DNA of 32,000 bases, taken from assembly GCA_964426185.1 (NCBI GenBank), contig CAYRPF010000012.1, positions 22,459 through 54,458 on the forward strand, given 5' to 3'. This DNA comes from an uncultured archaeon (GTDB lineage: Archaea > Asgardarchaeota > Lokiarchaeia > Sigyniarchaeales > Promethearchaeaceae). Below, piece by piece: positions 3,250 to 24,871 of the stretch. A program made the translations under genes and the position numbers. Numbering within the stretch: position 1 is the first letter of the stretch; each line of letters begins with the position of its first letter. Under the pieces are notes generated by a model. It had not been told where the DNA came from. It made no database searches and was given only the letters and a program-made list of their open reading frames with translations.

Positions 3250-4764
3250 TCATTTTTCGGGAGGCACTGTAGGAAGAAATCGAGATATTTTTTGCTGAAA
3301 TTCTTCGAAGGAGTAAGGTTTTAACAATATATCATCAAATCCAAAATCATGGTAATTGGCCAAAACCGAATTATTACTATAACCACTTGATGCAATAATC
3401 TTTGCCTCGAGAAATTGCGATTTTAACTGTCTGGCTGTTTCTTTTCCTCCCATACCTCCCGGAATAATAAGATCTAAAATTACCAAATCAAACGGATCTT
3501 GGAGTGTAAACGCTGAAACGTATTTTACCATTAATTCTGTTCCATCGAATGCACCTTCATATTGAATTCCAAGTTGATCACACATCCGCTGTAAAAGCAT
3601 ATGTATCGATTTCTCATCATCTAATACGAGAATTTTTCCTGAAAATTTCCATTTTTGCTGTGAACTTTCTTTCTGTTCTAAATCTTTACCCCCTTTTGCA
3701 ACAGGTAGGTAAATATAAAATGTTGTACCAATGTATGGTTCTGAGGTAAATGTAATATAACCTCCATGATGTTTTATGATAGAATATGTCGTTGCCAACC
3801 CTAGTCCATTACCTTTGGATTTTGTAGTGAAATAGGGATCAAAAATTCTGTTTTGCAGTGATTTTGGAATTCCCCGCCCGTTATCTTGAATTGAAATAAG
3901 AACATATTTACCATTTGGTAGCGGAATTTTCGAGTGCTCGTCAATGGTTATATTTACTGCTGAAATTTTGATTAATGCTTGCTCTGAATGTTCCATTGCT
4001 TGATCTGCGTTTAAGATGATGTTATTTAATACTTGATTGATTTGTCCTGCATCTACATCAATTTTAGGTAAGTTTTCTTCGAAGTAATAGACACATTTTG
4101 ATTTAGTGCCACGTAAAATGAAGTTGGCTGATTCTTTTATCAGATCTTGAATTGATTCAGGCTTTTTTACTGGATTTCCTCCTTTTGAAAAAATAAGAAG
4201 TTGGTTTGTTAGCTGTTTTGCTCTGATTACGCTGTCATGCAAACTTTCAAGAATTTCGTGATATTCTTCTTCATCATTTGAAGTGAAATTAAGTAATTCC
4301 AAATTTCCTAAAATACTGGTTAAAATATTGTTATAATCATGGGCAATCCCTCCAGCCAGCACTCCAATGGATTCAATTTTTTGATTACGGAGGAATTCAT
4401 TATCTAATTGATCTTGTTTATGCCTTATCGCTCTTTTGGCGTATTTCATTTGGGTTATATCACGGAGAATTACAAGTAAACACTTCTTTTCTTCAAATAC
4501 AATATCTTTTACATTTATTTCGAGCCAAATTTTCTGCCCATTTGGAAGTATAAATGTTTTTTCTGTGGTAAATGGTGTCTTGTTGGTTTGTAGTAACTTC
4601 TCGATCTCTTCTAATTGAAATCCAACTGTTTTTGATTCAAAGAATTGATTGGCATAGATAATATGATTTGATTTAATAATTAGAATACCAAGATCGATCT
4701 GGTTTAAAATATTTCTAAACCCTTTTTCTCTCTTTGTAGATTGATTCATTAAATCCAATTTCAA
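3250..4764 (-). CDS. Hybrid sensor histidine kinase (PAS-like, HisKA, HATPase_c, receiver)
   Basis: H-box AGGIAHDYNNIL; N-box QVLNNIILNADQAM; G1 DNGRGI; F/G2 FDPYFTTKSKGNGLGL; receiver LVLDDE...LDLIIPGGMGG...SSGY...KPY. Confidence 0.95.
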   Translation of the reverse strand: MKLDLMNQSTKREKGFRNILNQIDLGILIIKSNHIIYANQFFESKTVGFQLEEIEKLLQTNKTPFTTEKTFILPNGQKIWLEINVKDIVFEEKKCLLVILRDITQMKYAKRAIRHKQDQLDNEFLRNQKIESIGVLAGGIAHDYNNILTSILGNLELLNFTSNDEEEYHEILESLHDSVIRAKQLTNQLLIFSKGGNPVKKPESIQDLIKESANFILRGTKSKCVYYFEENLPKIDVDAGQINQVLNNIILNADQAMEHSEQALIKISAVNITIDEHSKIPLPNGKYVLISIQDNGRGIPKSLQNRIFDPYFTTKSKGNGLGLATTYSIIKHHGGYITFTSEPYIGTTFYIYLPVAKGGKDLEQKESSQQKWKFSGKILVLDDEKSIHMLLQRMCDQLGIQYEGAFDGTELMVKYVSAFTLQDPFDLVILDLIIPGGMGGKETARQLKSQFLEAKIIASSGYSNNSVLANYHDFGFDDILLKPYSFEEFQQKISRFLPTVPPEK

Positions 4765-22691: not shown

Positions 22692-22835
22692 AGGATTCGC
22701 TTCCGCTTCTCCAAGATCATATATAGAATTGATCTATAAAAATATCACTGATTTTTCCATTAATAAATCGTTATCTATTTAAGTCAAACGAATTTTAAAG
22801 TAAGTAATACCATTTTAAAATCATGGTGAAGCAAA

Positions 22836-23765
22836 ATCACAGATGATCCCGCCGAAATTTCAAATATTCTTGGTAAAAACTATTCAAAAAGTGATGAATT
22901 TCAAGAAAAATTAAAGGAAATTAACAAAAAATTACAAAAGCTCGGGGCTTTTACTCTTAATGATTCACGAATTTACACAACTTTGCTAGTTCATGGTCTA
23001 AGTTCTCCTGCGAAAATTTCTGAAAAAAGTCAAGTAGATCGGGCCAGAGTTTATGATTCACTAAAAAGATTGGTTAAACGAGGAATTGTAGAAGAAGAAC
23101 CAGTGCCTCGAGCTCCACGGTATAAAGCAGTTCCTCCAGAAATAGTATTTGGAGAAATTAAATCAAAATTTCAATCCAAAATTGCATTAGCTGAAGATCT
23201 CACAAAAGATTTGGAAAATCTCTCTAAATATCAACCAGTTGAAAAAAATTCAGTTTGGACCATTCAAGGGGAAAGAAAAATACAAAAATTGACTCAAAAA
23301 TTCGTTAAAGAAGCTGAAAAATACTGTTATATGATTCTGCCTTTAGATTTTTCTCTAGCCTCGCTACATGAGTTTGAGTCAATAACAGAGTGGATTTTGG
23401 CAAAATTATGCAAAAGTGATATAGAATTTCGCATTGCAATGAAAATTTCAAAAGATCAAAAACAATTCACGCCTCTAATAAATCATCTATTTCATGAAGG
23501 CGTAAAATTCTATAATTGGATTTCTTCTCCCATTTTACCGTTTGGGTTGATAATAACTGAAAAATCATATATTCAAACCTACTTGTCAAATTCAGTTCCA
23601 AAACCGAAATACGATTATGGTGTTTTTATGGAAAATGCTTCAAAAAACCAAATTAAAGGCTTACACACATTGTGCATTTGGGTTTATACACATTTGTGCC
23701 AGCAAGTAATTTTTGAAAAGAAAAAAAAAAAAACACAACCAGGAGATAAATCAAATGGAATATAA
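22836..23765 (+). CDS. TrmB-family transcriptional regulator (wHTH + putative effector domain); start probably non-canonical
   Basis: LQKLGAFTLNDSRIYTTLLVHGLSSPAKISEKSQVDRARVYDSLKRLVKRGIVE...YKAVPPE is the TrmB HTH; SVWTIQG. The conserved helix extends upstream of the track's TTG 22983; the frame is open back to TGA 22827. Confidence 0.88.
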   Translation: MTDDPAEISNILGKNYSKSDEFQEKLKEINKKLQKLGAFTLNDSRIYTTLLVHGLSSPAKISEKSQVDRARVYDSLKRLVKRGIVEEEPVPRAPRYKAVPPEIVFGEIKSKFQSKIALAEDLTKDLENLSKYQPVEKNSVWTIQGERKIQKLTQKFVKEAEKYCYMILPLDFSLASLHEFESITEWILAKLCKSDIEFRIAMKISKDQKQFTPLINHLFHEGVKFYNWISSPILPFGLIITEKSYIQTYLSNSVPKPKYDYGVFMENASKNQIKGLHTLCIWVYTHLCQQVIFEKKKKKTQPGDKSNGI

Positions 23766-24327
23766 AGGTAAGGTAAGTGTGATCGGTCCCGAAGGCACTG
23801 GAAAAACCTCATTAATCCTTCGATACATTAAAAATACCTTTTCAGAAGAATATATCGCAACTTTAGGCGCTGATTTTATTGAAAAAACTTATGACAGCGT
23901 GGATTTACCTCAATTGCGAAGTCGAGAAAAAATGACTATTGTTTATTGGGATATGGCTGGTCAATCCGTTTTTAAAGAAATATCTTCTATTTACTGTGAA
24001 GGTTCTTTAGGATTAATAATCGTTTTTGATGTTAATGATCGGAAAACCTTTGAAGAGTTACCTAAATGGTTGGAGTTTCCCAAGCAGATTTGTCCAGATG
24101 CAATAACTATGGTGGTGGGGAATAAGACAGATTTGGAATTTAAAATTTCGCCCAAGGAAATTTCACAGATGGAGAAACGTTTGAATCTTAAAATTGAGTT
24201 TGTATCAGCCAAGCGGGAGTTAGATGACGAGCGATCAAATGTTCGGAATGTTTTTACAAAGATGGCATCTGAGTTGTTGAAAAAGTTTACCGAATATCGG
24301 AAAATTTCAACCAAGGCATCTGATTAA
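23755..24327 (+). CDS. Rab-like small GTPase
   Basis: G1 GPEGTGKT, G2 YIATLGADF, G3 WDMAGQ, G4 GNKTD, G5 SAK; ATG 23755 follows AGGAGA and overlaps the TrmB 3' end by 11 bp. Confidence 0.94.
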   Translation: MEYKGKVSVIGPEGTGKTSLILRYIKNTFSEEYIATLGADFIEKTYDSVDLPQLRSREKMTIVYWDMAGQSVFKEISSIYCEGSLGLIIVFDVNDRKTFEELPKWLEFPKQICPDAITMVVGNKTDLEFKISPKEISQMEKRLNLKIEFVSAKRELDDERSNVRNVFTKMASELLKKFTEYRKISTKASD

Positions 24328-24343
24328 TTTTAAATTTCTTATT

Positions 24344-24871
24344 TTATCCGTTTTTACCTATTTTTTTAATATATGCAGACACTATGTCTTCGGAAATTTC
24401 CAAAAAGGCAAGACTGGGCTTTGGTACAAAATCATTTGCAAAATTACGAAGTAGATAAGGGGAAGGACGTGGTTGGGTGAGTGAACCTGGATTGAGGATG
24501 AGACATCGATCTTGTGTTTCTTGAATTCGTGGATAGTGAGTATGGCCATGAATGAATACTCTTGGTTTTTCTTCCAATTGAAAATAGACTTCTGGACTAT
24601 GGGCTACCACAATCGACACTTTTTTAAAATTTAATGAAAGCTTTAAGGGCCATTTTTTAACATTATCCATATTACCGCGGACTACACTGGTGGGAGCAAT
24701 TTTTTCTAGATCTTTGATAAAATCTTCGATTAATACATCTCCAGCGTGAATGATATGGTCAACATCTTGAAAATAATACCTGATAACTTTCAGTAAATGG
24801 GAATATTGGTTTTCAGCATCAGAATTTCGCTTGAAATTTAAATGAGTATCCGATAATACCCCTATTTTCAA
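24344..24871 (-). CDS. YfcE/MJ0936-family metallophosphoesterase
   Basis: SDTH, HAGD, VRGNMD, HGHTH, LNPGS motifs; TTG start after GGAGG. Confidence 0.92.
   Translation of the reverse strand: MKIGVLSDTHLNFKRNSDAENQYSHLLKVIRYYFQDVDHIIHAGDVLIEDFIKDLEKIAPTSVVRGNMDNVKKWPLKLSLNFKKVSIVVAHSPEVYFQLEEKPRVFIHGHTHYPRIQETQDRCLILNPGSLTQPRPSPYLLRNFANDFVPKPSLAFLEISEDIVSAYIKKIGKNG

Follow-up and report, generated by a model that had tools for sequence, protein, structure and literature searches.

TrmBL2 of the Thermococcales (TK0471 / PF0496; PDB 5box, 5bpd, 5bpi and 5bqt) is a stand-alone abundant chromatin protein, built from a winged helix-turn-helix (wHTH), a long helix and a PLD-like domain, without the sugar-binding subdomain of its sugar-sensing relatives. 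In those relatives, TrmB and TrmBL1 (PDB 3qph and 2f5t), the wHTH and a first effector subdomain are followed by a C-terminal subdomain (past residue 243 of 335), which makes most of the sugar contacts. The Asgard Rab-like GTPases (Thor-Rab and the MK-D1 set) share a Ras-family G domain with motifs G1-G5; Asgard genomes encode dozens of such Rab/Ras-like proteins, whose partners are hard to assign by gene order, and in MK-D1 the GTPase genes do not, as a rule, share operons with genes for roadblock, longin or TRAPPC3 (Tran et al. 2024, PMC10933270). Finally, in the A9/T9 slippage genes (IS-element transposases, dnaX), a homopolymer of at least 9 joins two overlapping frames, and orthologues retain both the run and the arrangement of frames (Baranov et al. 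2005, PMC1088944).

The locus described here touches on all of these systems. It lies in a Lokiarchaeial stretch of 32,000 nt, called the window, and has the following features:

22825-22829, plus strand: GGTGA Shine-Dalgarno-like motif, 6 nt ahead of the probable ATC start of the regulator (from sequence and recurrence)
22836-23765, plus strand: TrmB-family regulator gene of TrmBL2 architecture, 309 codons from a probable ATC at 22836 to the TAA at 23763-23765 (from fold match and AF2 model)
22932-23141, plus strand: wHTH DNA-binding domain (Pfam TrmB, PF01978), residues 35-104 of P0001
23238-23714, plus strand: C-terminal PLD-like fold domain, corresponding to the N-terminal subdomain of the TrmB effector domain (from structure match)
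23721-23733, plus strand: A13 run, which with AAG 23718-23720 forms the K5 codons of a disordered Lys-rich tail that follows the folded domain directly (from sequence, pLDDT and three other assemblies)
23741-23746, plus strand: AGGAGA Shine-Dalgarno motif of the GTPase gene, inside the last regulator codons (from sequence; a GGAGAT block is common to the same-genus locus L002)
23755-23765, plus strand: 11-nt overlap between the 3' end of the regulator gene and the 5' end of the GTPase gene, a translational-coupling arrangement (from sequence)
23755-24327, plus strand: Rab-like small GTPase gene, 190 aa, G1-G5 intact, no C-terminal Cys prenylation motif (from Pfam, PDB matches and alignment)
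24328-24375, plus strand: T-rich stretch past the GTPase stop, followed by a convergent gene (from sequence and ORF list)

The initial annotation of this DNA read the junction as a possible switchable TrmB-Rab fusion, and the sequence facts on which it drew were all recovered at the same coordinates. The run at 23721-23733 is flanked by G23720 and C23734, and the 3' end of the regulator gene reads TTT GAA AAG (A)13 CA CAA CCA GGA GAT AAA TCA AAT GGA ATA TAA, which places the run 10 codons from the stop. The TrmB-like frame stays open between 22830 and its TAA at 23763-23765; the Rab-like ORF (ATG 23755 to 24327) is in +1 relative to it, with no stop from 23710 onward, and has its own AGGAGA with the ATG 8 nt past the motif. 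In silico loss of one A gives a single frame of 496 codons and a continuous 496-aa protein with the junction ...FEKKKKKHNQEINQMEYKGK..., exactly as had been described, and A14 or A11 gives a short tail with the end NTTRR*. As in the known slippage genes, a homopolymer of at least 9 thus lies at the overlap of two frames, with +1 open to 23755. Only seven codons outside the run separate A13 from the GTPase ATG, and a stretch of that length is free of stops about 60% of the time as estimated from genome base composition, so the open junction is unremarkable given that the genes overlap. Taking the evidence below together, we consider it very probable that A13 simply encodes a poly-Lys tail in an ordinary translationally coupled two-gene operon, with fusion at most rare noise.

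Membership of the first protein in the TrmB family, as initially assigned, was confirmed by Pfam (PF01978, E 6.4e-17, 61.6 bits against a cut-off of 25.6). Its AF2 model (pLDDT 89.2) comprises a wHTH, a 30-residue helix and an alpha/beta domain, and matches TrmBL2 over the full length (5box_A, Z 16.2, model residues 21-288 on 2-264 of the 263-residue chain). The two proteins are similar in length, with about 15% identity, and the TrmBL2 equivalog NF041141 of NCBIfam scores 28.7 bits against a cut-off of 530, so the regulator has a TrmBL2-like build but is not a TrmBL2 orthologue. Unlike TrmBL2, it has an acidic N-terminal extension and a Lys-rich tail, and it is hard-wired to a GTPase gene rather than standing alone. 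The match to TrmB 3qph_A covers residues 8-243 of 335 only, i.e. the wHTH and first effector subdomain which the two have in common. Similarly, the C-terminal domain alone (model residues 133-289) aligns with the nuclease Nuc (1byr, Z 15.2, rmsd 2.7, 139 aligned) and with residues 110-243 only of TrmB 2f5t_X (Z 14.3). Hence the effector domain is not that of a complete TrmB/TrmBL1 sugar sensor: nothing in it corresponds to the sugar-binding C-terminal subdomain of TrmB, the protein stops 16 residues past the PLD-like domain, and the TrmB/TrmBL1 equivalogs of NCBIfam reach 45-54 bits against cut-offs of 600-650. With that subdomain missing and the equivalogs far under threshold, the sugar-responsive, nutrient-sensing role first proposed is unsupported. 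Model confidence drops past the folded part, which ends at the Phe directly ahead of the Lys run: the final two blocks of 10 residues have pLDDT of 59 and 53.

Across 49 sequences the recognition helix (VDRARVYDSLKRL) varies little or not at all, with R65, R67, V68, Y69, D70, S71, L72, R74 and L75 invariant, and this near-invariance suggests a conserved DNA target for the regulator. A crude scan for upstream operators in 14 loci of family f1 found shared 8-mers and perfect 5-nt inverted arms at levels not above shuffled controls; the same scan in 18 loci of family f3 returned only TTGAC-N5-GTCAA, in four closely related loci. P0003, a truncated 260-aa call of the regulator, is carried by no other contig and was discarded.

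The second protein is a Ras superfamily small GTPase (Pfam Ras family, E 3.9e-33, again in agreement with the initial assignment), with the motifs GPEGTGKT, T36, DMAGQ, NKTD and SAK. Among 31 orthologues, G11, G16, K17, T18, T36, D66, K124, D126 and S151 are invariant, and the start position M-E/D-Y-K is common to all GTPase orthologues. Rab12, Rab35, Rab1 and Sec4 are the nearest proteins of known structure (E about 1e-24), and the GTPase is Rab-like by these best PDB matches only: the C-terminus, ...YRKISTKASD, has no Cys for the prenylation that defines Rab sensu stricto, likewise in the orthologues. The missing C-terminal Cys sets it apart from the described Asgard Rab-like proteins, as does the fixed gene partner, a DNA-binding protein. 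The genome has 41 Ras-family matches, this one included. In a tree with 33 other Ras-family paralogues of the genome, the linked GTPases cluster, with one long-branch paralogue next to L012 and a backbone without resolution; a single origin of the linked GTPases is conceivable from this tree, and their orthology across the phylum plausible.

In the regulator frame, the first ATG, GTG or TTG is the TTG at 22983, which is inside the wHTH. Further upstream, all five genus-level genomes carry GGTGA-N6-ATC/ATT, the motif itself containing an in-frame TGA (window 22825-22838; L002; L003; L014:10-23; L015:2893-2906). ATG 22823 combined with a frameshift was considered as the regulator start and dropped in favour of ATC 22836 because of this recurrence; translation thus probably starts at ATC 22836, and the pattern points to AUC/AUU initiation in these genomes. 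The NCBI annotation of near-identical MAGs places the start at an ATT at window position 22920 (L083: 666-1511), which is also non-canonical. Separately, in five f3 genomes (L019, L024, L054, L057 and L058) an ATT or ATA aligns with the Met of the GTPase, with no canonical start before the P-loop, an SD-like GGAGG or GGGGTG ahead of it in 5/5 and an in-frame stop 1-2 codons upstream in 4/5. Judging from these alignments, AUU/AUA starts may be fairly common in this order.

To place the window in context, the orthologous locus was gathered from 55 other genomes or contigs and the junctions were tabulated. In 53 of the 56 loci with enough downstream sequence for the comparison (two further loci were too near a contig edge), the TrmB-like gene is followed directly by the Rab-like GTPase gene. 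These pairs, the window and 52 other loci, span nine Asgard families (f1, f2, f3, f4, f5, f11, f17, f21 and f23), which is the fairer number since related genomes are not independent samples, and the regulator comes first on the same strand in all 53. Two cultured relatives, Lokiarchaeum ossiferum (L004) and Promethearchaeum syntrophicum (L007), also carry the pair. The pairing is conserved far beyond chance and over large evolutionary distances, and the operon-level coupling first suggested for this locus stands. Adjacency of TrmB and Ras/Rab genes in Asgard genomes had been proposed as something to look for, along with fusion; the former is borne out by these loci, and the latter is not, as no fused homologue was found (see below). 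The literature searched contained no paper linking TrmB-family proteins to Asgard archaea or to Ras-superfamily GTPases, in line with the initial remark that the pairing was not known as a described system. One GTPase lineage has a fixed TrmBL2-type DNA-binding neighbour in at least nine families, which provides a concrete pair for testing binding and GTP-dependent control of DNA binding; the window contributes a Lokiarchaeial pair whose genes overlap by 11 nt, along with evidence for starts at codons other than AUG. Co-folding of regulator, GTPase, GTP and Mg gave a median score of 0.31 against a mark of 0.32, and controls gave 0.00, which speaks neither way on binding.

The exceptions are two genomes of one f3 genus and one f18 genome; moreover, two f17 genomes have second regulator paralogues without a GTPase. 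In the two f3 genomes (L082 in G019 and L051 in G033), the regulator has no GTPase within 1.5-3.5 kb downstream, and in G019 its alignment crosses a stop codon (TAG in one search, TAA in another). A third genome of this genus, G017, has kept the pair, and the pair may be decaying in the G019/G033 lineage. At another locus (L035, G040), a fragment at 3953-4093 matching the first 47 GTPase residues lies between the regulator and the full GTPase gene at 4213-4755, and appears to be a partial tandem duplication.

How would the two genes be expressed? The first would yield a DNA-binding regulator of TrmBL2 architecture (wHTH, long helix and PLD-like domain) from the ATC start behind GGTGA, and the second a soluble Rab-like GTPase from its own AGGAGA and ATG. 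Past the GTPase stop, the T-rich stretch is followed by a metallophosphoesterase-type ORF at 24344-24871 on the minus strand, convergent to the GTPase gene, which makes the unit bicistronic; with a divergent gene upstream and this convergent gene downstream, the regulator and GTPase genes are presumably co-transcribed. Neighbour genes of the window are also found at L014 and L015. GTPase translation would be coupled to the regulator's termination, which occurs 8 nt past the GTPase ATG, and overlaps or abutments of -8 to +1 nt, which recur in the distant families f2, f5, f11, f17 and f23, are consistent with translational coupling there as well. We infer that the conserved pairing reflects a functional link: the regulator may set the expression level of the GTPase, or the GTPase may act on the PLD-like domain of the regulator in place of a small ligand. 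A13 itself would be a lineage-specific lengthening of AAA/AAG codons in a conserved disordered Lys-rich tail, where slippage would cost little.

Given the 11-nt overlap in +1 phase, loss of one A from the run by an mRNA or a ribosome would carry reading on into the GTPase. Selection against transcriptional slippage in bacterial genomes is seen from a run length of about 9 (PMC1088944), and ribosomes are reported to slide on A runs (PMC5009743). A13 is well above this length, so it is physically plausible that some fused molecules arise from slippage, and since the pairing is deeply conserved, a fusion would not necessarily be harmful. Most likely such a product is rare noise and not a selected switch; the data give no sign of selection or regulation of fused molecules.

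The run length of A13 is supported by other assemblies. Four further public contigs, two of them from NCBI MAGs and two from ENA metagenome assemblies, encode the identical GTPase protein and are 99.94-100% identical to the window over 1.2-3.2 kb, and all three of those that span the site read A13, so that four assemblies agree when the window is counted. These data bear on heritable phase variation, in which slipped-strand mispairing would toggle the population between A13 (two proteins) and A12 (fusion). Homopolymer tracts of about this length are mutable in many organisms, and the fourth contig, L085 (ENA ERZ27227322, contig k141_1224434), although 100% identical to the window, breaks inside the run with two A kept; assembly may simply have broken there, or the reads may be heterogeneous at the run. 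Against toggling, the consensus is A13 in 4/4 assemblies across the site and no record of an A12 allele or fused gene was found; phase-variable loci, moreover, are usually surface or restriction genes and not regulators. We therefore regard phase variation as very unlikely. We give the same slim chance to A13 yielding, in this species, a measurable minority of fusion, in which an active tethered form of two proteins that normally work together would alter the response of the regulator to the nucleotide state of the GTPase; if true, this would show recoding in an Asgard archaeon at an early stage of its origin.

Programmed recoding, in which A13 would be a selected transcriptional or ribosomal slippage site giving a defined share of fusion and thus a switchable covalent coupling of two conserved neighbours, would if true be a striking case in a close relative of eukaryotes. 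In its favour, the run is long enough, no stop interrupts +1 between 23710 and the GTPase ATG, and A12 encodes the fusion. The comparative data are against it, and the conservation of run and +1 phase on which it depended failed in the Asgard relatives. Over the 53 junctions, A-run length varies from 3 to 14, frame offset is 0, +1 or +2, and the intergenic gap ranges from -11 to +262 nt, with stops in most spacers of the relatives. Even within the genus-level clade, A13 of the window corresponds to A5 in L002 and L003, A8 in L014 and A6 in L015. Only 12 of the 53 pairs, essentially those with overlapping or abutting genes, have a GTPase frame free of stops back into the regulator ORF, and in the other 41 it is closed beforehand; none of the 11 other open junctions has a run of at least 9 within the open stretch. 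L014 (A8, +1, open for 51 nt) is the sole other locus where losing one A from a run of at least 8 fuses the genes, and is a point for recoding. Neither run nor frame arrangement is thus conserved as in established slippage genes.

A natural fusion of TrmB and Ras domains was not found in four large searches. The regulator search at similar lengths gave 53 relatives of 197-341 aa, all with PF01978 alone, and that for proteins of at least 535 aa gave none; the best 150 matches of the regulator profile to 1.84 billion representatives were all at most 394 aa, and the GTPase-side search for longer forms gave only an unrelated fungal protein. What is kept in family f1 is the basic tail, F-x-K-K, as protein, while the runs encoding it vary in length. 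Of the possibilities originally listed, neutral poly-Lys coding, then a fallback, accordingly fits best: run, phase and open junction are not conserved, and the tail is disordered. In another genus, L006 (G012) has an independent A14 at the same Lys-tail position (about 2380-2393), followed by a 54-nt spacer with stops, which makes fusion impossible there; L010 (G008) has an A14 at about 2380, inside a 226-nt spacer. The Lys-tail site seems prone to recurrent homopolymer expansion.

Long homopolymers are also enriched genome-wide: at a G+C content of 34%, the genome has 211 A/T runs of at least 10 and 8 of at least 13, compared with 62 and 2.2 expected from base composition. Among the 66 A/T runs of at least 11, about half are poly-Lys on the sense strand of long ORFs, often mid-gene, and many fall, in frame, within the middle part of ORFs of 500-1100 codons (for example A12 at codon 187 of 530, 493 of 619 and 619 of 789). 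Long A runs are therefore ordinary Lys coding in this organism. Equally long runs in the middle of large genes, where slippage would only be harmful, speak further against programmed recoding, which we consider very unlikely. Long homopolymers are error-prone on several sequencing platforms, and a miscall, as the initial annotation had cautioned, with a true A12 and the locus encoding a single fused regulator-GTPase protein, is the least probable reading of all: the assemblies agree, the spacing between the conserved Phe codon and the GGAG motif (27 nt in the window, 24 nt in L002 and 33 nt in L014) is always a multiple of 3, as fits frame-0 translation of the tail and A13 rather than A12, the other long runs of the genome leave large ORFs intact, and no fused homologue was found. 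As poly-Lys tail coding, the run is at the position where a frame error is cheapest, 10 codons from the regulator stop. The longest homopolymers of the genome are at C57:21897 (T18), C17:25254 (A14) and C6:9739 (A15); two of these three are at, or at most about 8 codons from, the start of open frames of 549 and 4293 codons, and could affect start or expression of these frames.
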